A DNA stretch of 64,000 nt from Amphiscolops sp. MND2022 (Eukaryota), in the NCBI GenBank assembly GCA_964187785.1, contig OZ076409.1, positions 72,480,001 to 72,544,000 of the forward strand, written 5' to 3'. The position numbers and the translations under genes are program-made. Positions 1-63,604 of the stretch are shown here, piece by piece. Under the pieces are notes generated by a model. The model had not been told where the DNA came from, did not search any database, and worked only from the letters and a program-made list of their open reading frames with translations. The stretch's first letter is position 1; each line of letters starts with the position of its first letter.

Positions 1-976
1 GGGGGACATAGTTTCAGTCACCCCCCGTTACCCCTTGTGACCGGAAATGACCGTTATGTGGGTAAAATTAGGATTTTTGTACTTTTTGAAGGGCATTTAG
101 GTGCGGAAGGAGTGGTAATAGGTGCTTGGACACTATATGATGGAATGGAGGACGTGAGGCGAACATTCAGACATAACCGTTATGTTGACCCTAAAGTCCC
201 CCTGGTACCGTAAACGACCGGAAATGGTCAAATTTTGTGTCTATTGGGTACAAATGTTTGGTATTTTGTAAATAAAAGTATCTATTAGGTGTTTCGACGG
301 TCTGCAGTAGTGAACATAGTCATGAAACCTTGTCGGGGGGTAACGGTATATAGCACCGGAAGTCCAAAACGTTAGAGACGGGATAGGTTTTTTCGTTTTA
401 AAATGTCTTTCGGCGTACTTTTGTCAACTAATATGGAATATTTTTTAAAATTAAAGTTTTTCCATATAGTTTCAGAGACTCCCAAACCTCAAACAACATA
501 ACCGTTACCTTATGATAGCCTTTCAAGTTGGCCTGGTGTCAACTTGGAAGGGCTATCCTTCAAAAATCGTTGATCAAGTGTGTTTTTGGGTATGTTTGAA
601 TCATTTTAGAATCAATTAGAGCTTCAAGAAATGTTTGCCAACTACAAAAACTATGTCGTGATGATTCCGTTATTAGAGTAATGGTTAACAAAATATTGAT
701 TAAGTTGATTTTTTACATTTCAAAAGTGTCCTAAAAGCCAGAAAACCTCTTTACCAAACAAATGGTATTGATTGGATTGTATATAACATGTAATAAAAGT
801 TCAAATTGATTATTACGTTTTATTATGTAAGCTGAAACGTCATATTATAGTTTAATTAACGTCAACGCCACATACTTTACACCAACGCCCACCGTCTGTG
901 GGCATGCCGAGGCATGCCCTTCGACGACGTATACCAAATACATTTCATATCTACACCCACCCGCGGTAGCAGCTAG
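1..976 (+). mobile_element. Family B unit, 3' half (runs off window start)
   Basis: Matches the 3' half of B units (e.g. 26900-27873); GATAGCC hairpin 514-557; tail ending CTAG at 976. Confidence 0.8.
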
Positions 977-2520
977 GTGGGCGGGGGTAATTCCCCAACA
1001 AAAATTACGGCCGGCGGGTTGGGTCCTGCCGGACGTTCAAATAGCGCGAAGCATCTAGTAGAAAACAAGGAGTCCTGAAACAGCGATTTTAAAATTGAAC
1101 CGTTAGAATTTGGTTTTAGATTGCATGCGGCCCTAAAATTCCCATACGAATGGAAGTTCCTGCTGGCGTTAAGCGATTGAAATAATATATAAAAAGTTAT
1201 GGCCCATTTTTGGGTCACCGAGAAGGTCAAAATGAAGAAAATTTTAACTAAGTTGCTGATAACTCAAAATGTGTTAATTTTTGGACTTTGACTGTGAAAC
1301 AAGCTTGGAACCTTCATTTCGTGGCTGTGGCATTGCACTGAACACAAAAGATGTAAAGTTTTTACATTTTTCGAAAATTCGACATTTTTGATTTTTTTTC
1401 ACTACTATCAGTACACTATATGTCAAAAACACCTCTGAAAAAAATTATTATTTGCTTAAAATTGGAAACCTTGGTATCCATGGTTTCTGTCGGAACCTAC
1501 TCGCTGCCAAACACCCAACAGTTTGCATCCAATGTGAATTTAAAATTTTTTTCGAGGTCATAAGGGTTTCACAATGTTTTCATAACTTAGTATTAAACTA
1601 CAAACTGGTCATTTTCAACATAATATCTTTGTCGAGGCATGTCGGATATAGTCCTATTGCTCACGAACGGTCCTACTGGCAACGTAATAACCATTTATAG
1701 AAATGTAAAGTTATAAAAAAATTTTTTCACCCGGTCTTCAGTCATTTTTCAGTCATTCGGAACTTAACTTAGAAAAATTTCGACCAAAATATCCATTTTT
1801 TGTCAGGTCGAAAAATCAAATTAAGATTTTTAAGCAAAATTATTAACTCTGACGTAACCCATCGGGCCCATGATACTCAAAACAATGATTGACACTGGTA
1901 TCAATGGCTCCAATAACATATGAGTCGCGATAAGACGTTATTTTGAGCATTACGTCTCAATTGAGGTAAAGATCTCGCAAGCCAGCGATCACTGTGAAAT
2001 GTGATTTCATCAAAAATTTACTCATTTTTGTCAATCACTATGTGCACAGAATGCGTAGGGTGCGTTTCAGCACTATAATGAGGTTTTTGAAGGCATCGAG
2101 TTGCTCAAGGGGTGGTATGAGACATTTTTGTCCCATATACTACTGTATTTTCCAAAATTTTTAGCCCAATATCTGGAAATACAAACTTGACAAAATACTT
2201 TCAACTACTTTATTCAAAGGTTACAATATAGATAAACACTGTGGTTGATCAGAAACTTTCATCTCTTTCGTTTTCCGAAATATTTCCCTTCGCATGTGTT
2301 ACATTCGTAGCAGAAAAAAAAATCGAAACTGAAAAATATGCAATTTTGCTAAGATAGAATCGCAATGATTGTGCCTAAAAACTCTTTAAACACTTCTAAC
2401 GCAACCTTACGCACCCAAAATGATCGAAAATGCTATTCACAATGGTGACATGTGCTCTTTCTACGATCCTGGGTGGACAAGGTTTGCATATTTTTCAAGT
2501 ACCTGTCAGCTAAATCTTGT

Positions 2521-2564
2521 GATAGCCTTTTCAGTTGGCCTTGTGTCAACTTGGGAAGGCTATC
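2521..2564 (+). other. Conserved internal bulged inverted repeat GATAGCCTT..AGTTG-GCCT(T/G)GTGT-CAACTTGG.AAGGCTATC (representative copy)
   Basis: One copy per A and B unit and in G and the complete E, e.g. 514-557, 58427-58470, 63166-63209. Confidence 0.85.
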
Positions 2565-2856
2565 ACATCAAAAAACCATCAACAAAAATAATTTTTGTTT
2601 ATTGGATCTTACAGTCGATACTTTTTTTCGTGATTCTATACTACCGTTAGTATATTTGATCAGGTCACCTTACCATTGCATTCAGTCTTTGATAAAAACC
2701 TATGAACTCAAAGTCACATTTATATATTTTTTTGCCAAAAAAAACATCAAAAATATCTAAAATATATAAAATAGAGTCTTTAACTTTTTTACGTTTCAAG
2801 TTTCTGCCGTTATTAAGCCAATCAACTTCCTACAGCCACGCTCTCTGTCATACTGT

Positions 2857-2964
2857 ACAACGCCACATAGTGTTGCGACGTGCACGGTCTGTGGGCATGC
2901 CGAGGCATGCCCTTCGACGACGTATGCCGAATACCGCGGGCCTACGCCCGCGCTCCCCGGCTAG
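2857..2964 (+). other. Conserved 3' terminal module (representative copy): CAACGCCACA, 20-bp palindrome, GC hairpin, CTAG
   Basis: Palindrome 2893-2912; hairpin CGCGGGC-CTAC-GCCCGCG 2935-2952, 12 nt before the end; module present at all 26 CTAG junctions. Confidence 0.85.
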
Positions 2965-4955
2965 GTGGGCGGGGGTAATTCCCCAACAAAAAAATCGGCC
3001 GGCGGGTTGGGTCCTGCCGGCCGTCCAAAATCAAAATCCTCCTAGTAGAAAACGGCATGTCAAACGAGCTATTTTTTTATTTAACCATACGAATTTCACC
3101 ATTTTTTGCATGCGGCCCTGAAATGGCCATACGAGACGAAGTTCCTGCTGACGTTTTGCGATGTAAATGTTTTATAAAAAGTTATGGCGGATTTGTCATT
3201 CACCTAGAAGGGTAAAATGAGGAAAATTTTAACAAAGTCGCTGATAACTCAAAATGTGTTAATTTTTGGACTTTGACTGTGAAACAAGCTTGGAACCTTC
3301 ATTTCGTGGCTGGGGCATTGGACTGAACACAAAAGATGTAAAGTTTTTACGTTTTTTGAAAATTCGACATTTTTGAAATTTTTTTCACTACTATCAGTAC
3401 CCCATATGTCAAAAACACCTCAGAAAAAAATTTTTATTTGCTTTAAATTGGAAACCTTGGTATCCATGGTTTCTGTCGGAACCTACTCGCAGCCAAACAC
3501 TCAACAGTTTGCATCCAATGTGAAAATAAAAATTTTTTCGGGGTCATAAGCTTTTCACAAGGATTTCTCAACTTAGTATTAATTTACAAAATGGTCAATT
3601 TGAACACATTATTTTCATCGAAGCGTGTCAGATACCGCGCTAATGCTCACGAACGGGCCTACTGGCAACGTTGGAACAATTTATCGTAATAGAAAGTTTA
3701 AAAAAAATTTTTCACCCGGTCTTCAGTCATTTTTCACACATTCGGAACTTAACTTAGAAAAATTTCAACCGAAAAACCCATTTTTTGTCAGGTCGAAAAT
3801 TCAAAGTCAGCTTTTTAAGCAAAATTATCAACTCTGACGTAACTCATGGGGCCCATGATACTCAAAACAACGATTGGGGTTGGTACCAATGGCTCCAATA
3901 ACATATGAGTCGCGATAAGACGTTATTTTGAGCAATATGTCTCAATTGAGTTAAAGATCTCGCCAACCAGTGATCACTGTGAAATGTAAATTCATTAAAA
4001 ATTTACTCATTTTCGTCAATCACCATGTGCACAGAGTGCGTAGGGTGAGTTCCAGCACTATAATGAGGTTTTTGAAGGCATCGGGTTGCTCAAGGGGTGG
4101 TATGAGACATTTTTTTCCTATATACTACTGTAGTTTCCAAAAGTTTTAGCCCATTATCTGGAAAAACTAACTTGACAAAATACTTTCAATAACTTTATTC
4201 AAAGGTTACAATGTAGATGAACCCAGTGGTTGATCAAAAAATTTCATCTCTTTCGGTTTCCGAAATAATTCCCTTCGAATGTGTTACATTTGTAGCAGGA
4301 AAAAAACCGAAACTAAAAAATACGCAATTTTGCTGAGATAGAATCGCAATGGTTGCCCCTAAAATCTCTATAAATACTTCTAACGCGACCTTATGGACCC
4401 AAAATGATTGAAAATGCCATTCACAATGCTGACATGTGCTCTTTCGACGATCCTGGCTAGACAAGTTTTGCATATTTTTCAAGTACCTGTTAACTGAATT
4501 TTGTGATAGCCTTTTAAGTTGGCCTTGTGTCAACTTGGGAAGGCTATCACATCAAAAAACTTTCATCAAAAATACTTTTTGTTTATACAATAATGTAGTC
4601 GATAGTTATTTTCGTGATTTTACACTACCGTTAGTACCTTCCGCCAGGTCAGCTGACGATTGCATGCTGTCTTTGATAAAAACGTATGAACACCAAGAAA
4701 ATTTTGTTGTATTTTTGTTGAAGAAAAGTAATAATAAATAATAAAAATATAATTCTAACCTTAAACAACTATAAATTTGCTTAACCGTTATTAGTCCTAC
4801 CACCTATCATCAGCCTATGCCATGGCCCGGTGATTAGTAGTACAACGCCACATAAAGTAGCGACGCCCACAGTCTGTGGGCATGCCGAGGCATGCCCTTC
4901 GACGACGTATGGCAATTTTAGCGTAGCCCGCGGTCACTACCGCGGTAGCAGCTAG
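2965..4955 (+). mobile_element. Family A unit (1991 bp)
   Basis: Same head and tail grammar; near-identical to the next unit. Confidence 0.8.
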
Positions 4956-13670: not shown

Positions 13671-13870
13671 NNNNNNNNNNNNNNNNNNNNNNNNNNNNNN
13701 NNNNNNNNNNNNNNNNNNNNNNNNNNNNNNNNNNNNNNNNNNNNNNNNNNNNNNNNNNNNNNNNNNNNNNNNNNNNNNNNNNNNNNNNNNNNNNNNNNNN
13801 NNNNNNNNNNNNNNNNNNNNNNNNNNNNNNNNNNNNNNNNNNNNNNNNNNNNNNNNNNNNNNNNNNNNNN
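13671..13870. other. Assembly gap (200 N)
   Basis: Run of 200 n; a round number, so the true size is unknown. Confidence 0.99.
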
Positions 13871-21954: not shown

Positions 21955-23930
21955 GTGCGGGGGGGAAACCCCAACAAAATTTTTGGAGGATTCGGGTAGG
22001 GTCCTGAATCCGAGTTCAGTGCTGCCAGCTTTCGTTAAGAAAATTTGGATAGGATTCGGGATCTCGTGATCTAACCATAGGATTTTAAAGTTGGAGCGGC
22101 CCCCACCAGATTTTCCGAAAATTAGCGCCCCCCACCGGGTTCCAGCGTGATTGAAATATTTTGACGGGGTACACGGGCGACCGTTAGGGGGTCATTTTAG
22201 GGGTAAAATTCATATTGGGCCACATAACTTTTTTTCTGTTGATTTAAAACTTTGGGACCCTGCTAAAAGTTTCTTGACCGTGTTGCAGGGGCCCCGAAGG
22301 TCCAAACCAAATTTTTCTATCTTGAAGCTATCTCCAAGTACCCCCCCGCCCAAAACGTTATTTTTCCGGAAACGCAGGTTTTAGACCCGGAAGGAGTCGT
22401 CTGAGCGCGGGGTCGTTAGGTGATGTTTTGGGGACGGCCTTGAGACGAAGTGGGGGACATGTAGTTTGCCGACCCCAGTTTACCCCCCGGACGGGAAGTG
22501 ACCGTTATTTGAGCGGGGAAAATGCCCCCCTCCACGTTTTACCGCTATTTCCGGTGTGAAGGAGTGGGAGTAGCGCGTCGGGTGTTATATAACAAAAGTA
22601 GGTTTAGACAAGGACCTATCGGAAACATGTGGTTTGGGACCCCCTGGACCAACCCGTTAGCGGGAAATGGGGCTTCCGCCTCCTTTTTTTTACGGTTAAA
22701 AACGGAAAATGGGCATTGAGGGGTAAATATCTCGTGAACGCGTGGAGCAATCGTGTCCATCACTACTACAAGTTTTCATACCCATGATATGGTGCCTTCA
22801 GGGGGGCAAACAGATTTCCGCTATCTATCACCGTTACGGACTTGGCCCCCCAGCCCAACCGCTATGTGACCGGAAATGTCACTTTTTGAGCCCAAAGGGT
22901 CGGTCCCAGTCGGGGAACGTTAGGTAACTTATTGTAGTACTCAATGAGACGAGTTGGGGGATATAGTTTCAGTCACCCCCCGTTACCCCTTGGGACCGGA
23001 AATGACCGTTATGTGGGTAAATTTGCATTTTTTGTACTTTTTGAAGGGCATTTAGATGCGGAAGGAGTGGTAATAGGTGCTTGGACACTATATGAGGTAA
23101 GGGAGGACGTGAGGCGAGCATTCGGAAATAACCGTTATGTTGACCCTAAAGTCTCCCTGGTACCGGAAGTGACCGGAAATTGTCAAATTTTGTGTTTTTA
23201 GGGTACAAATGTTCGGTGTTTTATGGATTAAAGTACAGGTTAGGTGTTTTCACGGTCTGCAGTAGTGAACATAGTCATGAAACCTTGTGGGGGGTAACGG
23301 TATATAGCACCGGAAGTCCAAACCGTTGGAGACAGGATAAGTTTTTTGGTTTTAAAATGTCTTTCGGCCTACTTTTGTCGACTATTATGGACTATTTTTG
23401 GAAAATAAAGTTTTTCCAAATAGTTTCAGAGACTCCGAAACCTCAACCAACATAACCGTTACCTTATGATAGCCTTTCAAGTTGGCCTGGTGTCAACTTG
23501 GAAGGGCTATCCTTCAAAAATCATTAATCAAGTGTGTTTTTGAGTATGTTTGTATTACTTTAGAATCAATTAGAGCTTCAAGAAAAGATTGCCAACAACA
23601 AAAACTATGTCGTGATGATTCCGTTATTGGAATAATAGTTAACAAAATATTGATAAAGTTGAGTTTTTACATTTTAAATGTGTTCTAAATGCCAAAAAAC
23701 CTCTTTACCAAACAAATGGTATTGATTGAATTGTATATAGCAGCTAATAAAAGTTAAATTGAATATTACGTTTCATTATGCAAGCTGAAACGTCAAATTA
23801 TAGTTTAATTAACGTCAACGCCACATACTTTACATCAACGCCCACCGTCCGTAGGCATGCCGAGGCATGCCTTTCGACGACGTATACCAAATTCCACCCA
23901 CACAACACTCCCGAGCGCGTTAGCAGCTAG
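21955..23930 (+). mobile_element. Family B unit (1976 bp)
   Basis: B head, body and tail. Confidence 0.8.
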
Positions 23931-27873: not shown

Positions 27874-29866
27874 GTGCGGGGGGGAAACCCCATCCCTTAT
27901 CTTGGAGGATTCGGGTAGGGTCCTGAATCCGAGTTCAGTGCCGCCAGCTCTCAGTAGAAATCTGGGCATTTTTTTGCGATCTCGTGATCTAACCATAGGA
28001 TTTTAAAGTTGGAGCGGCCCCCACCAGATTTTCCAAAGTTATTCGCCCCCCACCGGGTTCCAGCGTGATTGAAATATTTTGACGGGGTACACGGGCGACC
28101 GTTAGGGGTCATTTTGGGGGTAAAATTTATATCCGGTCGCATAACTTTTTTCCTGTTGGATTAAAACTTTGGGACCCTGCTAAAAGTTTCTTGACCGTGT
28201 TGCGGGGGCTCCGGAGGTCCAAACCAAATTTTTCTATCTTGAAGCTATCTCCAAGTACCCCCCCGCCCAAACCGTTATTTTTCCGGAAACGCAGGTTTTT
28301 GACCCGGAAGGAGTCGTCTGAGCGCGGGGTCGTTAGGTGATGTATTGGGGACGGCCTTGAGACGAAGCGGGGGATATATAGTTTGCCGACCCCAGTTTAC
28401 CCCCCGCACGGGAAATGACCGTTATATGAGCCGGAAAAATGCCCCCCTCCACGTTTTACCGCTATTTCCGATGGGAAGGAGTGGGAGTAGCGCGTCGGGT
28501 GTCATATATCAAAAGTAGGTTTAGACAAGGACCTATCGGAAACATGTGGTTTGGGACCCCCTGGACCAACCAGTTAGCGGGAAATGGGGCTTCCGCCTCC
28601 TTTTTTTACTGCTAAAACCGTAAAATGGGCATTGAGGGGTAAATATCTCGTGAACGCGTGGAGCAATCGTGTCCATCACTACTACAAGGTTTCATACCCA
28701 TGATATGGTGCCTTCAGGGGGGCAAACAGATTTCCGCTATCTATCACCGTTACCGACTTGGCCCCCCAGCCTAACCGCTATGTGACCGGAAATGTCACTT
28801 TTTGAGCCCAAAGGGTCGGTCCCAGCCGGGGAACGTTAGGTAACTTATTGTAGTACTCAATGAGACGAGTTGGGGGATATAGTTTCAGTCAACCCCCGTT
28901 ACCCCTTGGGACCGGAAATGACCGTTATGTGGGTAAATTTGCAATTTTTATACTCTTTGAAGTGTATTTAGGTGCGGAAGGAGTGGTAATAGGTGCTTGG
29001 ACACTATATGATGTAATGGAGGTCGTGAGGAGAGCATTCGGAAATAACCGTTATGTTGACCCCAAAGTCCCCCTGGTACCGTTAACGACCGGAAATGGCC
29101 AAATTTTGTGTCTATTGGGTACAAATGTTTGGTATTTTATGGATAAAAGTACCTGGAAGGTGTTTTAAAGGCCTCCAGAAGTGAACATAGTCATGAAACC
29201 TTGTGGGGGGTAACGGTATATAGCACCGGAAGTCCAAACCGTTGGTCACAGAATAGGTTTTTTGGTTTCAAAATGTCTTTAGGCATAGTTTTGTGGGTTG
29301 AATCGTCATAATATCAACTAATACGGACTTTTTTCGGAAATAAAATTTTTTCACATTAGTTTCAGGGACCTCCAATGCTTCAGTCAACATAACCGTTACA
29401 TTTTGATAGCCTTTCAAGTTGACCTGGTGTCAACTTGGAAGGGCTATCCTTCTAAAATCGTTAATCAAGAGTGTTTTTGGGTAGGTATATGTTGCATTAG
29501 TACCAATTAGAGCTTCATCAACAGTTTGCCAACGGCAAAAACGATGTCGTGATAATTCCGTTATAAAAATATTAGTTAACAAATTGTTTTCAAAGTTGAT
29601 TTTTTCCATTAAAAATGTGTCCTAATGCCACCAAATTGAATAAAATAATAAATGGTATTGACTAAAACTAAATAACAATGAAAAAGAAGATCAACATTTT
29701 TATTAGGTCTCATTATGGAAGCTGAAACCTCACGTTTTAGTTTAATTAACGTCAACGCCACATACTTTACATCAACGCCCACCGTCTGTGGGCATGCCGA
29801 GGCATGCCCTTCGACGACGTATACCAAACAACCTCCATATCTACACCCACCCGCGGTAGCAGCTAG
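27874..29866 (+). mobile_element. Family B unit (1993 bp)
   Basis: B body with ~20 extra bp near 29290-29330; CTAG end. Confidence 0.8.
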
Positions 29867-31837: not shown

Positions 31838-34040
31838 GTGGGCGGGGGTAATTCCCCAACAAAAAAATCGGCCGGCGGGTCGGGTCCTGCCGGCCGTCCA
31901 AAATCAAAATTATACTAGTAGAAAACGGCCGGTCAAACGAGCTATTTTTTTATTTAACCGTTAGAATTTGGGTTTAGATTGCATGCGGCCATGAAATGGC
32001 CATACGAATGGAAGTTCCTGCTGACGTTTTGCGATTGAAACACTTTATAAAAAGTTATGGCCAATTTGTCATTCACCTAGAAGGGCAAAATGAGGAAAAT
32101 TTTAACAAAGTCACTGATAACTCAAAATGTAATAATTTTTGGACTTTGACAGTGATACAAGCTTGGAACTGTCATTTCGTGGCTGTGGCATTGCACTGAA
32201 CACAAAAGATGTAAAGTTTTCACATTTTTTGAAAATTCGACATTTTTGAATTTTTTTTCACTACTATCAGTACACTATATGTCAAAAACGCCTCTGAAAA
32301 AAATTTTTATTTGCTTAAAATTAGAAACCTTGGTATCCATGGTTTCCGTCAGTACCTACTCGCCGCCAAACGCTCAACAGTTTGCATTCAATGTGAAAAT
32401 ATAATTTTTTTCGAGGTCATAGGTGTTTCACAAGGATTTCTCAACTTAGTATCTATTTACAAATTGGTCATTTTGAACACATTATTTTCATCGAAGCGTG
32501 TCAGATACCACCCTAATGCTCACGAATGGGCCTACTGGCAACGTTGGAACCATTTTTAGTAATAGAAAGTATTAAAAAAATATTTTCACCCGGTCTTCAG
32601 TCATTTTTCAGACATTCGGTACTTAACTTAGAAAAATTTCGCATCAAAAACCCATATTTGGTAGGGTCGAAATTTGAAATTCAGTTTTTTATGCAAAATT
32701 ATTAACTCTGACGTAACCAGTGGAGCCCATGATACTCAAAAACACGATTGGGACTGGTATCAGTGGCTCCAATAACATATGAGCCGCGATAAGACGTTAT
32801 TCAGAGCAAACGCTCTAAATCGAAGTAAACATCTCTGAAGCCTGGGATCACAGTGAAATGTGATATCACCAAAAGTTTACTCTTTTTTGTCAATCACTAT
32901 GTACACAGAGTGCGTAGGGTGAGTTTCAGGACTATAATGAGGTTTTTGAAGTAATCGCGCTGCTCAAGGGGTGGTATGAGACTATTTTTTCCCATATACT
33001 ACTACATTTCCATAAATTTGCAGTCCATTGTCCTGGAAAGATAACTTCACAAAAACAATTTTTCTACTCTATTCAGTTATTAGAATAAAGTTGAACACTG
33101 TGGTTGATCAGAAATGCTCAATTCTTTTGGTTTTTAAAAAAATTCCTTCGCATTCGTTACATTTGTGGAAGGAAGGTTATCAGTAGCTCCAAAAAAAAAA
33201 CGAAATTTAGCACGAACAGACATGCAACGATGCAAAGCAAAAACGTTTTTACAACTTCCGACGTCATTATTTTACCCAAGAAGTTCGAAAATATCATTCG
33301 CAATGCTGTCATTCGCTATATATACGATCGCGGTCTATTTACAAACATTTAGATTTCATTGTTCTGCTTGAAAACCAATTTTTGTCAGGTCGAAATTTTA
33401 AATTTTGCCTGGGGAGCAATACCCTTCACGCTGAAGTAAACAGTGGGGCCCAAGTTACTCAAAAACAAGAAAGAGACTGCTACAATATGTCCTAATAACA
33501 TATGGACCACGATAGTACGTTTTTCACACAAAAAACTCTCATCCGAAGTAAATATGTTGAAAGCTTTTAATCACCGTGAGAAGTGATTTCATCAAAAAAT
33601 AACTCTTTTTTGTCAATCACTATTTACACAGAATTTGTAAAGTTAGTTTGAGTCATGAAATGAGGCTTTACCGTAATATGGGTTGCTCAAGGTGTTATAT
33701 AAGACAAAAACTTCCTCTTTTCTACTAGCTTCTTCAAATATTTCAACCCTTTGTCACAATAAGTTAATATTCAAAATCTCTTTGAAATGTATCTTTATGT
33801 TGGGGTGAAGTCTAAGAACAATAACTATGATCGAAGAATGCTAGTACTGGTGTTTGAACCATGTCCGGATGAACAAATCACAAAATCATCAAAAAATTGT
33901 TCCCTTTTTTGGTTATTTTGGCAGTACTAAAAATGTTAGCCGATAAATAATTTTTTCGATGGCACCATTGGATTCCTCTCAAAAAGTTGGTTATATGACC
34001 TGTGTAATAACCCCGTATCTTTTCAATTTAAATATATTTA

Positions 34041-35410
34041 AAAAGCCAACTATTTTGACCAAAATCCTAAAAATCATACCATTTCCTAAAAATTTTCAAA
34101 TGCACCCCATTTGACGTATAAGATAAGCACAGAAAACTATCATATACCGATCAACTCTACTCCTATTGTAGATTATTAGAATTTTGTTAAGAATGAATTT
34201 TGATGAATATTAAAAAAATTTTGAACCCTCCAAAAATGGGCCAAAATTACACGAAAAAATTGACCTTAAAATACCAAAATGTCAAAAAATCATCAAAACC
34301 CAGGCTTCTTGGGGTTCTATCAACTCCGCGTGGTCCACAGAGTATGCTAAAACAGGTTTTACCCGTTTTTGAGCAATATGTGAAAAAGCCGACATTTTTG
34401 GGAAAGAAAAACATACCATTTCCTAAAAAAATTCAAATGCACGTCATTTGCCGTATTAGAATAGCACAGAAAACTATCACATACCAATCAACTCTACTTT
34501 TATTGCAGATGAACAGAATTTTGTTTAGAATAAATTTTACCGGATAATAAAAAAATTTGAATCCTTCAAAAATGGGCCAAAAATACACGAAAAAATGGAC
34601 CTTAAAAATTTAAAATGTCAAAAAATCATCAAAACAACAGCTTCTTGGGGTTCTATCAACTCCACGAGGTCCACAGAGTATGCTAAAACAGGTTTTACCC
34701 GTTTTTGAGCAATATGTGAAAAAGCCGACATTTTTGGGAAAGAAAAACATACCATTTCCTAAAAAAATTCAAATGCACGCCATTTGCCGTATGAAAATAG
34801 CACAGAAAACTATCACATACCAATCAACTCTACTTTCATTGCAGATGAACAGAATTTTGTTTAGAATAAACTTTACCGGATAATAAAAAAATTTGATTCC
34901 TTCTAAAATGGGCCAAAATTACACGAAAAAATGGACCTTAAAATTTTAAAATGTCAAAAAATCATCAAAACCACGGCTTCTTGGGGTTCTATCAACTCCA
35001 CGTGGTCCACAGAGTATGCTTAACCCGGTTTTACCCATCTTTGAGCAAAATGTGAAAATACCGACATTTTTGGAAAAGAAAAACATGCCATTTTCTAATA
35101 AATTTCAAATGCACGCCATTTGCTGTATGAGAATTACACAGAAAGCTGTCACATACCGATCAACTCTACTTCCATTGTAGATTATCAGAAGTTTGTTTAG
35201 AATAAATTTTGAAGGATAATAAAAAAATTTGAATCCATCAAAAATGGGCCAAAATTACACGAAAAAATTGACCTTAAAATATCAAAATGTCAAAAAATCA
35301 TCAAAACCACAATTTCTTGGCGTTCTATCAACTCCATATGATACCAAACCAGGTACTGCCAATCGTTTGAGTTATAATAAAAAAACGTCTTTTTTGGCAA
35401 GAATTCCATA
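34041..35410 (+). repeat. Internal tandem repeat, ~4 x 336-337 bp
   Basis: AT(A/G)CCATTT(C/T)CTAA recurs at 34076, 34413, 34749, 35085. Confidence 0.9.
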
Positions 35411-35626
35411 CCATAAATAATAATCATGTTCCATATAAGAAGCGAATCATTTCAGATATATACCCTGTTCATTTTTTTAATATTACCGATTATTAATTTA
35501 ATAGATGTTTTGAATGTGAGCTTCCTAAAAGGTTCAGGTGTGATGATACGTAAATAGAACCTTAGTTTCATCGAAATCTCAATTGAATATGTCCAATCTT
35601 AACCATCAGATAACAAGAAACACTTA

Positions 35627-35667
35627 AGTACATTCCATCTCCCCATCGGGGGAGATGAGAATGTACT
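35627..35667 (+). other. Bulged inverted repeat AGTACATTC-CATCTCCCC...GGGGAGATG-A-GAATGTACT
   Basis: Identical copy at 44372-44412; loop variant at 48296-48334. Confidence 0.85.
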
Positions 35668-36600
35668 TTCGAGAAGCCAAATACGTCCAACATTCAAACT
35701 TTTGTAACTTTGTATGTAACTCCTGAAACGAAGAAGGAATAAAATTGTTTCTGGTACATACATGAGTCTTTACTTCAGCTTCTATTTCTGCTGAACAAAA
35801 CCATTCGACTCTTTTGCCGGAGTTAAGATCGATTGTATTACCCAGTGAACAAAGGCATGACTGAAAACGTTTACTACTTTGTTCATAATTTTCCGGCCTT
35901 CCGAAATGATGAAACGTCCACATAACTAAGATAGCAAGTGAATGACTGCGAAATGCACCTTATTAGATGAGGTAAATAACGTGTAAAACTCTCCTTTATC
36001 CTAACATGAGGTTGAGTAATGATCATTTGAGAATAGTTTGATATGTGAATACAATAGTATAAAACAAGTACATTTTATATGAATAACGCCGTGGAAAGCG
36101 TTCAGAAAGGACATTAGGCTTGTTTGGAACATGTATGTGTGGTGTCCCTTGGTGGCGTTCGCTTAGTGTATATGTCGAGGGGTATTCGAGTTGTTATGAT
36201 AGAATTTACACACAAGTCTTTTGTTTTTTGGTTTTTTTAAAATGTCGTTAAGTACCTGCATTCTATCCCCTTCTCAGAGATGACGTGAAGTTACGTTTGC
36301 TAAATAAATGTCATCGAAAGATCACACTCCCGACGAAATTAACTATCTTAACACGTGTTTAGAATTTTAAATAAACAACCGTATAAGATTTTTATATTTC
36401 ATTGAGTTTGATGAAGTCTTTTGTTCTTCTCACTACTATTTCAACCAATACACATATCCGTTACCATATCACATGTCTCCATTAGTACAACGCCACATAG
36501 CGTTCCGACGCCCACAGTCTGTGGGCATGCCGAGGCATGCCCTTCGACGACGTATGGCAAATGGAGCCATGCCCGCCGTCTTTACGGCGGTAGCGGCTAG

Positions 36601-40574: not shown

Positions 40575-43500
40575 GTGGGCGGGGGTAATTCCCCAACTAA
40601 AAAATCGGCCGGCGGGTAGGGTCCTGCCGGCCGTCCAAAATCAAAAATATACTAGTAGAAAACGGCCGGTCAAACGAGCTATTTTTTTATTTAACCGTTA
40701 GAATTTGGGTTTAGATTGCATGCGGCCATGAAATGGCCATACGAATCGAAGTTCCTGCTGACGTTTTGCGATTGAAACACTTTATAAAAAGTTATGGCCA
40801 ATTTGTCAGTCACCTAGAAGGGCAAAATGAGGAAAATTTTAACAAAGTCGCTGATAACTCAAAATGTGTTATTTTTTGGACTTTGACTGTGAAACAAGCT
40901 TGGAACCTTCATTTCGTGGCTGTGGCATTGCACTGAACGCAAAAGATGTAAAGTTTTTACATTTTTTGAAAATTTGACATTTTTGAAATTTTTTTCACTA
41001 CTATCAGTACCATATATGTCAAAAACACCTCAGAAAAAAAATTTTATTTGCTTTAACTTGGAAACCTTGGTATCCATGGTTTCTGTCGGAACCTACTCGC
41101 AACCAAACAACCAACAGTTTGCATCCAATGTGAAAATAAAAAATTTTTCTGGGTCATAAGCGTTTCACAAGGATTTCTCAACTTAGTATTAATTTACAAA
41201 ATGGTCATTTTGAACACAATATTTTCATCGAGGCTTGTCGGCTATAGCCTTAATGTTCTAGAACGGTCCCACTGGCAACGTAGGAACCATTTATAGTAAT
41301 AGAAAGTTTAAAAAATATATTATCACCCTGTCTTCAGTCATTTTTCTGTCATTCGGAACTTAACTTAGAAAAATTTCGACCAAAATACCCATTTTTTGAC
41401 AGATCGAAAATTCAAATTCAACTTTTTAAGCAAAATTATTAACTCTGACGTAACCAGTGGGGCTCATGATACTCAAAAACACGATTGGGACTGGTACCAA
41501 TGGCTCCAATATCATATGAGCCGCGATAAGACGTTATTTTGAGCAATACGTCTCAATTGAGGGAAACATCTCGCAAGCCTGGGATCACAGTTAAAAGTGA
41601 TTTCGTCAAAAATTTACTCTTTTTCGTCAATCACTATTAACACAGAGTGCGTAGGGTGAGTTTCAGCACTATAATGCGGTTTTTGAAGGAATCGGTCTGC
41701 TCAAGGGGTGGTATGAGACATTTTTTTTTGCATGTAGTACTATATTTCTCAAAACTTTTAGCCCATTATCTCGAAAAGCTCACTTCGCAAATTACTTTCA
41801 GTTACTCTATTCGAAGCTTAGAATATATATGAACACTGTGGTTGATCAGAAACTCTTGACTATTTTGTTTTTGGAAAAAAACTGCCTTGCATGTGTTACA
41901 TTAGTGGCAGGAAAAATACCAGTAGCTCCAAAAATCACAATTTTGGACGGACAGACCTGCAATGATGCAAAGCAAAAACGTTTCAACAACTTCTGGCGCC
42001 ACTTTTTTTACCCAAGAGGTTCGAAATTACTATTAACAATGCTGACATTCGCTATAAATAAGATCGAGGTCAATTTACTAACACTTAGGTTATACATTTA
42101 TATCTGAGAAACCATTCTTTGTCAGGTCGCAATTTTAAATTTAGTTTGAGAAGCAATACTTTTCACTCTGAAGCAAACCGTTGGGCCCAAATTACTCAAA
42201 AACTACAAAATGACTGTCACCATATGCCCTAATAGCATATGAGATTCGACCGTTCGTTTTTAACACAAAAACTCTCATCCGAAGTAAACATGTTGAAAGC
42301 CTTGAATCACCGTGAGAAATGATTTCATCAAAAAATATTCCTTTTTCGTCAATCTTTATCTACACAGAACACGTTGTGTCATTTTCAGCCGTGAAATGAG
42401 CTTCTACCGTAATATGGGTTGCTCAAGGTGTTGTATAAGACAAAAACTTCCTCTTTTCTACTATCTTCTTCAAATATTTCAACCCTTTGTCACAAGAAGT
42501 TAATATTCAAAATCTCTTTGAAATGTTTCTTTAGGTTGGGGTGAAGTGTTAGAACAATAATTATGATCGAAGAATGATAGTATTGGTGTTTGGACCATGT
42601 CCGGATGAACAAATTGCAAAATCATGAAAAATTTCTTACCATTTTTGGTCATTTTGTCAGTACTAAAAATGTTAGCTGAAAAAGAATTTTTTTGATGGCA
42701 CCATTGGATTCCTCTCAAAAAGTTAGCTATATGAACTGTGTAATAACCCCGTATCTTTTCAATTTAAATAATTTTAAAAAGCAAACTTTTTTGACTAAAA
42801 TCCTAAAAATCATACCATTTCCTAAAAAATTTCAAATGCCCCCCATTTGACGTATAAGAATAGCACAGAAAACTATCACATACCGATCGACTCTACTTCC
42901 ATTGTAGATTACCAGAATTTTGTTTAGAACAATTTTTGACGGATGCAAAAAAAATTTAAACCCTCCAAAAAAGGGCCAAAATTACACGAAAAAATTGACC
43001 TTAAAATTTTAAAATGTCGAAAAATCATCAAAACCACAGCTTCTTGGGGTTCTATCAACTCCACGTGGTCCACAGAGTATGTTAAAACAAGTTTTACCCG
43101 TATTTGAGCAATATGTGAAAAAGCCGACTTTTTTGGGAATGAAAAACATACCATTTCCTAAAAAATTTCAAACGCACCCCATTTGACGTATAAGAATAGC
43201 ACAGAAAACTATCACATACCGATCGACTCTACTTCCATTGTAGGTTACCAGAATCTTGTTTAGAACAATTGTTGACGGATGCAAAAAAAAATTAAACCCT
43301 CCAAAAATGGGCCAAAATTACACGAAAAAATTGACCTTAAATTTTTAAAATGTCAAAAAATCATCAAAACCACAGCTTCTTGGGGTTCTATCAACTCCAC
43401 GTGGTCCACAGAGTATGCTAAAACAGGTTTTACCTGTTTCTGAGCTATATGTGAAAAAACCGACATTTTGGGGAAGAAAAACATACCATTTCCTAAAAAA

Positions 43501-45338
43501 TTTCAAATGCACGCCATTTGCCGTATGAGAATAGCACAGAAAACTATCACATACCGATCAACTCTACTTCTATTGTAGATTATCAGATTTTTGTTTAGAA
43601 CAAATTTTTATGGATATAAAAAATTTTTAAACCCTCCAAATATGAGCCAAAATAACACGAAAAAATGGACCCTAAATTTTTAAAATGTCAAAAAATTATC
43701 CAAACCACAGCTTCTTGGGGTTCTATCAGCTCCACGTGGTCCACAGAGTATGCTAAAACAGGTTTTGCCCGTTTTTGAGCAGTATATGAAAAAGCCGACA
43801 TTTTTGGGGAAGAAAAACATACCATTTCCTAAATAATTTCAAATGCAGGCAATTTGCCGTATGAGAGTAGCACAGAAAACTATCACACACCGATCAACTC
43901 TACTTCTTTTGTAGATTATCAGAATTATGTTTAGAGTAAAGTTTTATGGATATGAAAAATTTTTATACCCTCCAAAAATGGGCCAAAATGACACGAAAAA
44001 ATTGACCTCAAATTTTTAAAATGTCAAAAAATTATCCAAACCACAGCGTCTTGGCGTTCTATCAACTCCAAATGACCTTCAGAGTATACCAAACCAGGTA
44101 TTGCCAATCTTTTGAGCAATATTTAAAAACACCGACTATTTGGCAAGAACACCATAATATGTTCCATATAAGAAGTGAATCATTCCACATATATACCCGG
44201 TCTAATATTTCCAAATTAGCGATAACATTTATACATGATGGTTTTTGAAAGTGAGCTTCATAAGAGGTTGAGATGTAATAATACGTAAATGGACCCTAAG
44301 TTTCATTGAAATCTCAATGGAATACGTCCAATCAACTTCAATCCTAACTATTATATAACAAAAAACACTTGAGTACATTCCATCTCCCCATCGGGGGAGA
44401 TGAGAATGTACTTTTCAAAAGCCAAAAACTTCGAATTTTAAATCTTTTGTAACATTGTATGTAACTGTTGAAACGATGAACGAATAAAAATGCTTCTAGT
44501 ACCTTCATCAATTTTTGCTTCAGCTCCTATTTCTGCAGAACAAAACCAAAAGACACACTTACAGCAGTTAAGTTCGATTGTATAACTCAGTGAATAAAGG
44601 TATGACTGAGGAAGTTCACAAGTTGTTTCAAAAGTTTCCGGCCTTCCAAAATCATGAAACGTCCACACAAGCAAGATAGCAAGTGAAAGAATGCTGAATG
44701 CACCTTATTAGATGAGATAAATAATGTGTGGAACTTGCCATTATCTCAAGATGACGTTGATTTTTGATCTTTTAAGGATAGTTCGATATGTGACCACAAT
44801 AGTGGAAAACTTATTACTATTTGAAGAACACCGTGGAAAGCGTTCAGAAAGGACAGTATATTTGTTTCGAGCATGCATGCGTGTGTTCCTTTGGTGACGT
44901 TAGCTTAGTGTACATGACGGAGGTATTCGAGAGATTATGATAGAGTTTACTCACAAGTCTTTGTTTTTTTAAACTTTCTATGCCGTTGAGTACATTCGTA
45001 AGGTACATCCATCCCCTTCTCTGGGAATGTACGTTTGCCAAATGACTGTCATCCAAAATTCGTAATCCGGACGAGTTTAACTACATAAACATGTGATGAG
45101 CGTTTTCAATTCACAACCGAATAACATTTTTTTTCTCGAAAATGATGATGGTTTTGATTTTGATGTCTTCTACTTTTATCATCATGCAAACGACCTTACC
45201 ATGTCTCTCTTCTGTCGTCATTTGTACAACGCCACATAGCGTTCCGACGCCCACCGTCTGTGGGCATGCCGAGGCATGCCCTTCGACGACGTATGCCAAA
45301 TGAGCCATACCCGCACTCTGGAGTGCGGTAGCGGCTAG
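40575..45338 (+). mobile_element. Long A' element (4764 bp)
   Basis: Colinear with 31838-36600 but visibly diverged. Confidence 0.8.
42776..44150 (+). repeat. Internal tandem repeat, ~4 x 335 bp
   Basis: CATACCATTTCCTAAA and GGGTTCTATCA(A/G)CTCCACGTGGTCCACAGAGTATG recur at ~335-bp spacing. Confidence 0.9.
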
Positions 45339-47326: not shown

Positions 47327-48598
47327 GTGGTCGTTAGCATGGGATTTTCTTTATGAGCGTAGTCCACTTTTTTTAGGCCGGGGTAGGGTCCCGGGCCGTT
47401 ACCAATTTCTTACGGAGGAAAAATGTGAAAATCTGCGAGTTTAAAAAATTGGCCCGTACGATTTGGCTGAAAATTGGCATACAGCATCGTCTTGGGAAAC
47501 AAATGACTTTGTCCTAGTGTCATTTTGCCCAGAAAATTCAAAAAGTTGGTCAAATTGAAAATTTTTTGACTGTCTAAGGCAAAAATTTGACTTTTTCGCT
47601 TTTTTTGGCCAATTTTCTCAGAATTGGTTGATTTTGGTGCAGTGAGTTATAAGAGGTTATAAGGTCTGCAAGTAGCCATCAATCGGCTTGCATAATCAGA
47701 TTTTGTCAAAAGTGTTTAGTTTTTTCAAAAATTTACACTTTTTTTTATTTCAATGTTTTTTGATACACTTTATTGAATTTTTTCTAAGTTACACTAAATT
47801 TTTTAAAAATGTTTTAAAACACTTTTTTTGATCGTTTTTGATGTTTTTCGCTCTCCCATATAGGTTTTCCTATACGGGGAAACTGAATCTGGCAACGAAA
47901 TAACTTTATTCTGCAGTTCAACTTTCGCCATTTTTAATTGTTGAAAAATCACTCATTTTCAACCTAACGAGTGAAAATATCAGAATTTAAAAACATAAAG
48001 TTGAGTTTAAGGAGACTTACAGGTGGAAACAAATGCTCAGAAACAAATAGATTTCGTGTATTAGCCAAAGAAAGCCTTTAAAATTCTTTTTACTTTCTTT
48101 AAATTAAAATTCAACTATTTTTAAGAAATTTGGCAATGAAAAAAATTTATAATTTTTAAATAAAAAACTTGTTTTGTTGGTCATTTCCGTTTGTCATTAT
48201 TAGCTGTGTAATTCACCAACACGTTTCAAGTTATTTTGACCCAATTTGAAAATTTTTGATACTGCATAATCTATCCGAGAGAACGAAACAGTTGTGTACA
48301 TTCCATCTCCCTCCTGGGGGAGATGAGAATGTACTTGCCAAAGTCCATGTACTACAGACCATATCTATTTTTATGCGACGCCGTCTATACTAGTGCACAT
48401 GAATACAAATTGTTTGTCTGAATTTTACTTCTGACTTGACGTATGCTGTACGTTTGGTACTGACAATACCCATCATATACATAAGCGTCAACGCCACATA
48501 CCCTTACCAACGCCCATAGTCCGTAGGCATGCCGAGGCATGCCTTTCGACGACGCGCGCCAAACACAAGCGCGCCCGCACTTTTGCGGTAGTGGCTAG
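47327..48598 (+). mobile_element. Family F short element (1272 bp)
   Basis: GTGGTCGTTAG head, unique very AT-rich body, GTACATTC hairpin 48296-48334, core tail, CTAG. Confidence 0.75.
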
Positions 48599-57500: not shown

Positions 57501-59455
57501 CAAAAAGTTCCGTTTTTTGCCACATTCCCTTGGACCTTTTTCATTCGGTGTTTGTTAGTTATGGTATTAACGCTCAACAACGAGCTCACGGGCAGCAGAA
57601 AACTTGTTTACAGTTACAAGAAGTATAATTAATACTACCACGCTTGGTCCCGACAGATTTTTTCTCCCATTCGTTCTCAAGATGAAAAAAAAATTTCCGA
57701 AAAACCCAATTTTTGTCAGGTCGAAAATTGAATTTTCGTGTTTTGAACAACACTATTGTGTCTGACGTAACCGGTGGCCTCCAAAAAGCTAAAAATTAGG
57801 TATATGACTGGTGTCAAACGCTTCAGTGACTTGGGAGCTACGATAACACGTTTTGCAAAGAAAAATTCTACTTTCAAGTGAAAATTTCGAAGACACATTT
57901 CAACAATAAAAACAGAATACAAGAAAAACTAACCTTTTTCTCGTCATTTACGATGAACATAGTATCAGTGTAGCGAATATGAGGTGTATAGAGGGGTCTA
58001 TATGAAAACCGTGGTACATAAAGCATTGTGTAACACAAAACTTACCATAGTACAAAAAATTTTTCACTAGATTTTTTGCATTTTTTATCAAAAAGTTGAC
58101 ACTGTAAACATCAATCAGCAGTTCAGTTCAGGAGGGGTATGCAACTTAGGACATGTTTCAAAGGGTACCCTCTTCCCGTTGTTCCAAACTCCTTTGTTAC
58201 TGCTGAATAGAGCCATATGTTTTACAAGCAATGTTCTTTAAAAGATAAATTAGCAAAGACTGAATCGTTTTTATAGTAGCTAAACCAAATTCCGGAAACG
58301 TCTCTCACTACTTGCACTTTGCAGACTCTATAGAGTTGACAACCTTCCCACATTGATGACGTTTGCGTATTTAAAGATTCAGATTGAACCATGTTTTTTA
58401 GGAAACAGCTGATACATGAATCTTGTGATAGCCTTTCAAGTTGGCCTTGTGTCAACTTGGCAAGGCTATCACTACAAAAAACAAAAAACAAGACTGCCTC
58501 GTCTTCCGTTGTAGCTGTAAAGAATATTGTCTAACCATCCATGGTCTCCGTAGTTGATAATATGTATTTAGCTGAGATGTTCTTTTCGTATATATTTATC
58601 ACTATACAGTTCAGAGACAACGTTTTTTCTTTGTGTCTTTCAAAAAAGATCTGAAACAATTTAGTCTAAATTTGTTAATTGTACATTGAATGTCCACTCA
58701 ATTTAACTTTTGGCTTCTTTATCAGCTTGAGGAAACCCCGTATCTCCTCCAAATGACAATTTGTTACATCTTGTGTTGAAAGCTTTCTTTCGTGGGATGA
58801 TAGCGCTAAAAAAACTGGAAAGGAGTGTCAATTAAAAATCGTTTGCAGGCAGTGAATTATCGTGGTAAACGTTTTGTACGTTTGCAAATTGTTCCACCAA
58901 AAAATTAGTTCCGTATAACACAAAAAGTTTTCAAAAATTGTTACAAGGCAAAATTTTGTTTTTTAATTTTTTTCTCCATTACAATCTAAACTCAAAAATT
59001 TAGTCAACATCTCACGTCTTCTCACATATCATCTGGATTTGAATAGAGTCTTTTGAAACAAAACTAACCTCATTTCCAACACATTCTATCCTAATATTAC
59101 AAAGCATTTCAGCAAATCCTTCAGTAATTGTGACAAATTCATTTGTAGAAAAATTTTATTGTCACTTAAGACACTATCAGCAGTGCCTCGAGTTCCGCAG
59201 CATCTATCAAGATGAACGGTGCCTGGTTGAAAGGGAATTCTCGGGATACCCTGTTTTTGTTTTAACGGCATTCAGGGTTGTCATTTCTGTATCATAGTGT
59301 TGATGAATTTTATCTTTGTTTCCATGGCAGTTTAAACCAAAACAGGTAGCAGGAAGTACAACAAAATATTTCAAACTTTACTAACAAACGTCCTTCTTCC
59401 ATTTGTTCAGGCCTCCTCCCCCCCCCTCTAGTCGTGCTCTAATTACCTCCACTGG
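54557..59455 (+). mobile_element. Family G element (4899 bp), atypical 3' end
   Basis: GTGGTCACGG head; ~355-bp repeats; block distantly homologous to the A body (TTTTGTCAGGTCGAAAATT...TCTGACGTAACC at ~57710-57775); GATAGCC hairpin 58427-58470; ends CTGG without the core tail. Confidence 0.65.
55019..56560 (+). repeat. Internal tandem repeat, ~353-362 bp period (5 unit starts)
   Basis: AACGGTC..ACGGTC..ATAAGGTCAAAAATTGTCAG-like motif at ~55019, 55377, 55730, 56083, 56445. Confidence 0.85.
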
Positions 59456-62400: not shown

Positions 62401-63604
62401 ATCTTCTCAAAAATTCATGTTATGTGTCATATTCCATTCCACGTTTTTTAATCGGTGCTTGTCGGTTATAGTATTAACGCTCAACAACGAGCTTACTGAC
62501 AAGAAACAACTTGTTAACAGTTATTAAAAGTATGTATAATTCCACCATGCTCGGTCTTGGCAGATTTTTCATCCCATTAGTTCTTAACGTGTAAATTTTA
62601 CTTCCCAAAAACCCTATTTTTGTCAGGTCGAAATTCGAATTTTCGTGTTTTGATCAATATTATTGTGTCTGACGTAACCCGTGGCCTCCAAAATACTCAA
62701 AAACAATAGTATGACTGCTATCAAATGCTTCAGTGACATGTGGGGCACGTTAACACGTTTTGGTAAGAAAAATTCCACTTCGAAGTGAAAATTTGGAAGA
62801 CACATTGTGTCAATAAAAACTGAATACATGAAAAACGTACCTAACTCCCGTCAATTAGTATTGACGTAGTAACTGTGTTGCGAATTAGAGGTCTATAGAG
62901 TGGTGTATGGGAAAACTGTGGCGCATAAAGCGTTGTTCATAACAAAGTTCTTCCAATAACTACAATTGTGTTTTCAAAAGTTTCACTATATTTCACATAT
63001 TCACAGAATGTGATTGATGCTACCTAGTAATGGAAAACCACTGTCGAATGTTCTTTAGTGGACTCAACAGTCCTGAAAATCACAGACATACATCACGATT
63101 CATAATTATACACTCGAGGCTACACAGTAATTTATTTCCGCTAGTTGCTGATAACTGAATTTCCTGATAGCCTTCCAAGTTGGCCTTGTGTCAACCTGGG
63201 AAGGCTATCAGTACAAAACACAAAGAACACAGCTTGTTGTTGCCTCTAATTTGCTGTTGTTTTCGTTAAGATTTTATGGTACCGTTTCTTTATAACATGT
63301 GGTTAACATAAGACAATTTCTCTCTGTATGGAACGACATCCATTGATAAGAAAGATTACAGTTTTTTAGTTGAAAAAGACCTTGAAACTACTGCGCAATC
63401 CATGCAATTTATCCAAAACGTTCATTCATTTCAATAATTTGCGTCCCATTGAGCGTCACAAACCACTATACCTCCTTTAACTGACAGTACAAAGACACAT
63501 CATCCTTTGACCGTCCACAGACCGAAGGCGTGGCGAGGCACGCCTTGCGAAGACCTTTGGCAAAACAGTACTAACGTCCGTTCGTGACGCATACGAAAAA
63601 CTAT
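59456..63604 (+). mobile_element. Family E element (~4.15 kb) with a divergent tail; right end approximate
   Basis: Head identical in type to 12905; colinear with G; GATAGCC hairpin 63166-63209; divergent core at 63487-63565. Confidence 0.65.
59928..61460 (+). repeat. Internal tandem repeat, ~353-362 bp period (5 unit starts)
   Basis: Same motif at ~59928, 60282, 60635, 60988, 61350. Confidence 0.85.

Follow-up and report, generated by a model that had tools for sequence, protein, structure and literature searches.

The window, i.e., the whole 64-kb stretch of DNA that was analysed, consists of non-coding units arranged head-to-tail and joined at CTAG/GTG (the slash marks the joint). The string GCTAG/GT occurs at 26 junctions that delimit 25 complete units, and 13 of the 26 junctions link unlike families. 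Although the junctions were found by means of this string, the switches from one family to another coincide exactly with those positions. The complete units belong to family A (15 copies of 1983–1992 bp), family B (six of 1971–1993 bp), family C (two of 4763–4764 bp) and family D (one of 1272 bp). The 25th complete unit is interrupted by a gap of 200 N, and its 5' half is 97% identical to an element designated E. The array is closed by element G (from 54557) and element E itself (from about 59456). The main units are as follows.

973..979, + strand: CTAG/GTG, first of the 26 junctions
977..2964, + strand: complete family A unit, 1988 bp, coding capacity not found
21955..23930, + strand: complete family B unit, 1976 bp
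31838..36600, + strand: family C unit, 4763 bp, with an A-like 5' part of 1.4–1.5 kb, 336-bp tandem repeats and a hairpin of the second type described below
40575..45338: second family C unit, also with a hairpin of the second type
47327..48598, + strand: family D unit, 1272 bp, with a hairpin of the second type

The bodies of A and B (977–54556) cannot be aligned and have a GC content of 38% and 45%, respectively, at nearly equal lengths (1971–1993 bp). Internal tandem repeats of 336, 362 and 353 bp are present in C, G and E, respectively (34070–35336, 42806–44156, 55853–56511 and 60246–61424). Incompatible-sites analysis of the 15 copies indicated that family A is a mosaic. At the assembly gap (13671–13870) an E-family 5' half is joined to a D-like 3' end, and any hairpin of this unit would fall in the gap. 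None of 57 reading frames of at least 65 aa, sampled from the tail of the array and a single unit of each family, reached the Pfam cut-off, and the array elements, hairpin included, gave no match in Rfam. Low-depth contigs of two sequencing runs contained parts of A and B, one of them crossing a 3'/5' junction; the hairpin lies outside their coverage, so these contigs speak neither for nor against it.

Two types of internal bulged hairpin

A preliminary description of this DNA reported a 44-bp bulged hairpin once in every A and B unit and also in G and E. A search with the 44-bp pattern (up to three mismatches) agreed with this, giving 24 matches in the window, every one on the + strand, and none in 100 shuffles. 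The matches, referred to here as type 1, are distributed over 15 of 15 A units, six of six complete B units, the partial first B unit, G and E.

514..557, + strand: type-1 hairpin, family B copy; stem of 19 bp, loop of 5 nt and a 3' arm longer by one base, DNA fold z of -4.75
2518..2567, + strand: type-1 hairpin, family A; stem lengthened to 22 bp
4505, 6497, 8489, 10473, 12462, 15566, 19521 and 21510, + strand: other A copies
38143, 40132, 46882, 50140, 52125 and 54113, + strand: remaining A copies
29405..29448, + strand: B copy with a G.T pair turned into A-T
17519, 23468, 25441, 27414 and 31376, + strand: other B copies
58427..58470, + strand: type-1 hairpin of element G, with no recognisable 3' end downstream
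63166..63209, + strand: type-1 hairpin of element E; one mismatch in the stem

Folding of the variants confirmed that the 3' arm carries an extra base and that the mismatches are mainly T.G on the top strand. The copy in which G.T has become A-T also exists, but at 29405–29448, and the altered pair lies one in from a loop-closing C-G rather than closing the loop. Of the distances to the right end given earlier, those for A (399–407 nt from hairpin end to junction) and B (416–420 nt) stand. The value of about 395 nt for E depends on a presumed end, since CTAT instead of CTAG stands at 63601–63604.

Many young intact copies lacking the hairpin had been named in advance as evidence against it. 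Three intact units (two C and one D) do lack the 44-bp sequence, but a folding scan found in each of them a hairpin of different sequence and the same shape. This second type has a stem of 17–19 bp, a loop of 4–6 nt and, some 12 nt from the axis, a single additional base in the 3' arm.

35626..35668, + strand: type-2 bulged hairpin, family C; second copy at 44371..44413
48296..48334, + strand: type-2 bulged hairpin, family D

A sequence-blind scan of the 64 kb for this shape (at least 17 pairs and no more than one bulge) returned 24 matches on the top strand, 21 of type 1 and three of type 2, all with the bulge on the 3' side, and no others. Three type-1 copies, with one mismatch apiece, fell outside the strict scan. 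With one copy per family the scan gave five matches, compared with one match in 40 block shuffles. All 24 gap-free units carry exactly one such hairpin, of type 1 or type 2, at a distance from the right end that ranges from 263 to 933 nt. The phenomenon is thus broader than first seen.

A scan of metagenomes with the 3' palindrome of the elements (see below) yielded one contig, OBOP01004400.1 (L001), with a body that cannot be aligned, a B-like left end and a type-2 hairpin about 277 nt before a CGAG/GTG junction. Over the two C copies, D and this contig, 32 paired core positions of type 2 are invariant; variation is found in the loop, in the closing pair and in the bulged base, which is A or T. 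Type-2 identity between C, D and L001 is 81–88%, with flanks at or near the shuffle level. The two types may also have five bases around the bulge in common (TTCCA opposite TG-x-GAA, in a register picked by eye), a region in which most type-1 copies have T.G pairs. A common descent of type 1 and type 2 is only suggested.

The possibility that conservation of the hairpin is no higher than that of its flanks had also been raised in advance, and it did not hold. Between-family identity of type 1 is 89–95% (89–91% for A against B), with flanks at or near the shuffle level. For A and B, the 200 nt upstream and the stretch down to the 3' palindrome show 46–51% identity compared with 46–49% in shuffles, and similarity above chance outside the hairpin is confined to the 44 nt directly downstream, an A-rich tract. 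The bodies had been described as otherwise dissimilar. This is true of A and B, but the A body has a distant homology to those of G and E (nhmmer E values of 1e-55 and 1e-40). Among A, E and G, identity is 50–54% across 200 nt on each side and 91–95% within the hairpin. Such a conserved hairpin in decayed homologous flanks is, as judged from these alignments, the pattern of purifying selection. The contrast in conservation within families is smaller: in A the hairpin scores 0.96 where windows average 0.87, which places it in the top 5%, and in B it scores 0.97 where they average 0.89, in the top 17%. Inside family B the hairpin is therefore unexceptional, 17% of windows being equally conserved, which counts against the explanation preferred below. 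The T directly before the type-1 stem is invariant in all 24 copies, including seven B copies where it is unpaired.

Strand preference and pairing

Complete pairing on the top strand (G.T allowed, one bulge) is seen in 11 of the 14 distinct variants of type 1, and on the bottom strand in none. Under DNA and RNA parameters alike, all 14 fold better as the top strand. This advantage is partly built in, as the variants share G.T pairs that the energy model accepts, and it amounts to only 0.4–3 kcal/mol with DNA parameters and up to 10 with RNA parameters. The type-1 bulge can take any position from 30 to 39. By a parsimony count made by hand, 14 of 17 type-1 stem changes keep full pairing by forming a wobble or a new Watson-Crick pair or by moving the bulge, whereas the body substitution spectrum predicts a share of 28–42% (P about 1e-5 to 2e-3). 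A conservative count within families gives 9 of 12 (P 0.002–0.04); the variants share ancestry and their counts are not independent. Two-sided covariation is scarce, with two pairs changed on both sides and 171 of 500 shuffles equally high, in a test whose structure included one extra, non-pairing loop pair. Type 2 is almost entirely Watson-Crick, and its two strands fold about equally. Because there is one hairpin per element, because two sequence types share one shape and because substitutions keep the top-strand pairing, it is well supported that the internal hairpin is a selected, strand-specific structure.

These results bear on the reading that the hairpin is a captured palindrome without function that gene conversion or a recent exchange of modules within the array has spread between families. 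The A–B hairpin identity of 89–91% about equals the body identity within A or B (87–89%), and the mosaic nature of family A also agrees with such exchange. However, the bodies of A, E and G are homologous and have nevertheless decayed to 50–54% around a hairpin that is 91–95% identical, the stem substitutions keep pairing, and in C, D and L001 its role is taken by a different sequence of identical shape. The passenger reading is largely disfavoured already and is considered quite improbable.

The larger advantage under RNA parameters means that the strand bias suits an RNA equally well. A top-strand transcript could be cut to a small RNA with a regulatory role, resembling a microRNA or a short hairpin RNA, to the benefit of the element or the host. 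The G.U bias on one strand is in keeping with this, as are RNA folding energies of -26 to -31 kcal/mol for top-strand 54–56-mers (z of -5 to -7), sequence conservation of both arms, which in family A are 22 and 23 nt long, and the T before the type-1 stem, which is invariant among all 24 copies. A canonical Microprocessor substrate requires some 11 bp more, and canonical precursors have an extended lower stem and a larger loop. The present hairpins depart from them in a loop of just 4–6 nt, a stem of 17–22 bp and the lack of a lower stem common to the families. Type 2 conserves only 16–17 nt per arm with a free loop, a B-box-like motif within 150 nt and a constant downstream T-run were both absent in 11 copies, and Rfam gave no match. 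A small RNA, a reading absent from the preliminary description, is a rather unlikely product of the hairpin but the main rival of the explanation preferred below.

Ends of the elements and their class

Conserved sequence is also found at and near the ends of the units.

863..932, + strand: conserved subterminal block with a palindrome at 900..919; in all families, ending about 50–57 nt before the right end
977..1035, + strand: left end of a unit, which begins with GTG and has two hairpins with stems that vary by family

At the base of the palindrome block there is an exchange between G-C and A-T, E (63510–63560) shows a compensated variant, and family A copies swap their terminal 60–100 nt at this block. 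At the left ends (977–1035; B, D, E, G and L001) the second hairpin consists of freely covarying stems around a GGG-rich loop. Another conserved block is present in A (1795–1860), C (33380–33450, the second copy), G (57710–57770) and E (62618–62680), twice in C and not in B. It contains the word TGACGTAA, which we take to resemble a bZIP/CRE site and perhaps to be part of a promoter. A block at 47450–47480, found about 100–130 nt into other units, resembles the conserved 5' core of insect non-autonomous Helitrons of the Lep1/DINE-1 type. Six motifs of the window, including the 47450–47480 stretch, were not found in the open literature searched.

The ends were compared with the criteria for HLE1 and HLE2 elements as given in excerpts of PMC11417382 and PMC4067079. 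For the CTRR 3' end of HLE1, all 26 junctions end in CTAG, L001 has CGAG and E has no clear CTAG. For the short 3' hairpin of HLE1, the folding energy of the terminal 42 nt is -5 to -13 kcal/mol in nine of 14 distinct ends and -0.6 to -3.1 kcal/mol in the other five. The 5' TC of HLE1 is absent, as GTG begins every one of the 26 units that follow a junction and also E and L001. As to insertion between A and T, the sole left flank outside the array is the CTGG before 59456, which does not end in A, and there is no certain right flank. The (sub)terminal inverted repeats of 11–18 nt that mark HLE2 were sought in 11 units (first 80 against last 150 nt), and the best were of 8–10 nt with one mismatch. 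The TT target or T-flanked ends of HLE2 are likewise absent, the junction and flank bases being G/G. Terminal direct repeats of the Replitron type could be compared at one flank only, with CTGG before the start and CTAG at the ends.

Because the 5'-TC, inverted-repeat and TT features are lacking, the elements are not filed as members of HLE1 or HLE2. The CTAG end, the GC-rich palindromes nearby, the precise head-to-tail joints and the internal repeats of 336–362 bp fit rolling-circle, Helitron-like elements, and the units likely work like Helitrons, by rolling-circle transposition. The mixed-family junctions, the CTGG flank before E (one flank only) and the CGAG/GTG junction of L001 suggest insertion directly after a sequence that resembles the element's own right end.

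Several known groups resemble these elements in part. Non-autonomous canonical Helitrons, as portrayed in excerpts of PMC4778049, PMC5876387 and PMC11417382, are also non-coding and have the CTAG right end, GC-rich palindromes nearby, precise head-to-tail junctions, no terminal inverted repeats and internal tandem repeats. They differ in beginning with TC instead of GTG and in having A as the flank instead of CTGG, and the right end of L001 is CGAG. The excerpts make no mention of a conserved internal bulged hairpin such as that found here, and Helraiser moves without one. The Helentron, DINE-1 and HINE elements of HLE2 (PMC4067079, in part) are likewise gene-less, with central tandem repeats, a 3' stem-loop and conserved blocks across dissimilar families, but the present elements lack their subterminal inverted repeat of 11–18 nt and their T-run flanks. 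Replitrons are HUH-type copy-and-paste elements with non-autonomous partners and short terminal repeats (PMC10288648, in part), which the resemblance of the CTGG flank to the CTAG end recalls; the excerpt describes no internal hairpin, and the resemblance concerns one flank only. The Hydractinia subtelomeric repeat HSymSHlR (PMC11934779) also forms Helitron-like tandem arrays with varied unit lengths. This likeness is by description only, with an internal repeat of 372 bp compared with 336, 353 and 362 bp here, and the word 'hairpin' is absent from the main text of that paper. A Helitron with an internal hairpin was not found in the open literature searched, and Repbase, Dfam, subscription journals or supplements may already list the family under a different name.

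Candidate roles of the hairpin

The preliminary description supposed that the hairpin is a third cis signal required for mobilisation and proposed three roles for it, namely second-strand priming, packaging and recombination. Sites of the attC type are imperfect, strand-asymmetric hairpins with an extra base, which the present hairpin resembles, and the weak A–B similarity begins at the hairpin. If the hairpin served as a folded substrate of site-specific recombination, crossovers would be expected there, but none was seen in the window. The excess of incompatibility across the hairpin is -0.01 to 0.03 in 15 A copies, whereas elsewhere it is 0.10–0.21 at most positions in columns 300–650 and 0.15 at column 1900, at the 3' palindrome, and the family switches are all at CTAG/GTG. 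A recombination site is accordingly a very remote prospect.

A signal for packaging into the capsid of a helper virus would agree with the length of 1.97–1.99 kb that A and B have in common although their bodies cannot be aligned. This proposal is weakened by the other carriers of the hairpin, which measure 1.27, about 4.15 and 4.76 kb beside the units of about 1.98 kb. Neither full hairpin was matched in viral contigs, and packaging is regarded as a most improbable role. The type-1 hairpin had no match in viral contigs, metagenomes or prokaryote genomes. A single-arm pattern of type 1 occurred in five viral contigs, none of which had the second arm, and these are chance matches. The type-2 hairpin had no match in viral contigs or prokaryote genomes, the 3' palindrome none in viral contigs or prokaryote genomes and one metagenome contig, and the left-end pattern none in viral contigs. 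Together with the lack of genes, the blanks in viral and prokaryote collections suggest a eukaryotic host. The stretch 2450–3100 gave no match to phages and plasmids, scans for sigma-70 promoters and terminators were at or below the shuffle level, and a hammerhead-like core word stood near just two of 11 hairpins.

Of the three proposals, we infer that second-strand priming fits best. A priming signal would account for one hairpin per element, for its variable distance from the end and for the pairing kept on the top strand. Observed are the single hairpin per unit, the two types with one shape, the top-strand pairing and the CTAG right ends. From these features the hairpin may well fold on the displaced top strand, where a protein would recognise it, most likely for priming of the second strand; this is the reading we tentatively prefer. 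A putative HUH/RepHel transposase would nick at CTAG/GTG and peel the top strand away. The hairpin would then form in the peeled strand 260–930 nt before the right end, and its stem and bulge would be recognised by a protein. The complementary strand would thereby be started, yielding the double-stranded circle that Helraiser needs for integration. The hairpin is a conserved, oriented island common to dissimilar replicons, as a priming site should be, the top strand being taken as the displaced one by analogy with Helraiser. Against priming counts that no autonomous element, transposase or primer was seen in the window (57 reading frames against Pfam). The slight top-strand advantage under DNA parameters, the shared ancestry of the variants, the about equal folding of the two type-2 strands, the shifting position of the type-1 bulge and the scarce covariation weigh on the same side.

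Excerpts of PMC5876387 report that Helraiser's plus strand alone is transposed, that its circles must be double-stranded to integrate and that transfected single-stranded circles were not converted to double-stranded ones. The conversion was left open there, with lagging-strand synthesis or a circovirus-like primer offered as models. Babuvirus primers begin in a second common region that dissimilar components share (PMC10653810, in part). The same source, as excerpted, describes the CR-M/CR-II of nanovirids and the short intergenic region of mastreviruses as a second non-coding island that is conserved, lies apart from the nick site, is common to otherwise dissimilar circles and serves for complementary-strand priming. 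The comparison is one of function only, as these circles are viral, encapsidated and about 1 kb long, with a nonanucleotide stem-loop origin. According to an excerpt of PMC4778049, Helraiser donors in which nothing but the two ends flanked a marker cassette gave circles and were able to transpose, which counts against priming, so an internal signal would be no general need of Helitrons.

The hairpin could also be bound by the transposase as a single-strand loading, pausing or end-pairing site with no priming role. Bulged subterminal hairpins serve in this way for the HUH enzymes of IS200/IS605 and for REP-associated ones, the shape and strand evidence is the same as for priming, and both types may share five bases around the bulge (by eye). 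Hairpins are broadly implicated in HUH binding (PMC10288648, in part). However, the hairpin stands at anything from 263 to 933 nt before the right end, and the determinants of precise cleavage in Helraiser lie within the terminal 40 bp (PMC4778049, in part). Binding by the transposase and priming are indistinguishable by sequence; binding alone is judged improbable.

With priming as the preferred reading, the elements would form a GTG...CTAG rolling-circle family that inserts at its own ends and has a dedicated single-strand origin in two interchangeable hairpin types. As a whole this picture is possible but doubtful. Overall, the comparisons indicate that the internal hairpin of this non-canonical Helitron-like family is real, selected and previously unremarked in the literature searched; its function is what we infer from them. 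An obligatory-looking internal hairpin in natural non-autonomous elements is a concrete candidate for the start of the second strand, the step left open in the excerpts of PMC5876387. If it is a single-strand origin, it would be the missing cis element of one unexplained step of Helitron transposition, and if it is a small-RNA hairpin instead, this would be a transposon family in which each branch keeps its own regulatory RNA. Under either reading, these elements would escape annotation tools whose search is limited to TC...CTRR ends or short inverted repeats.
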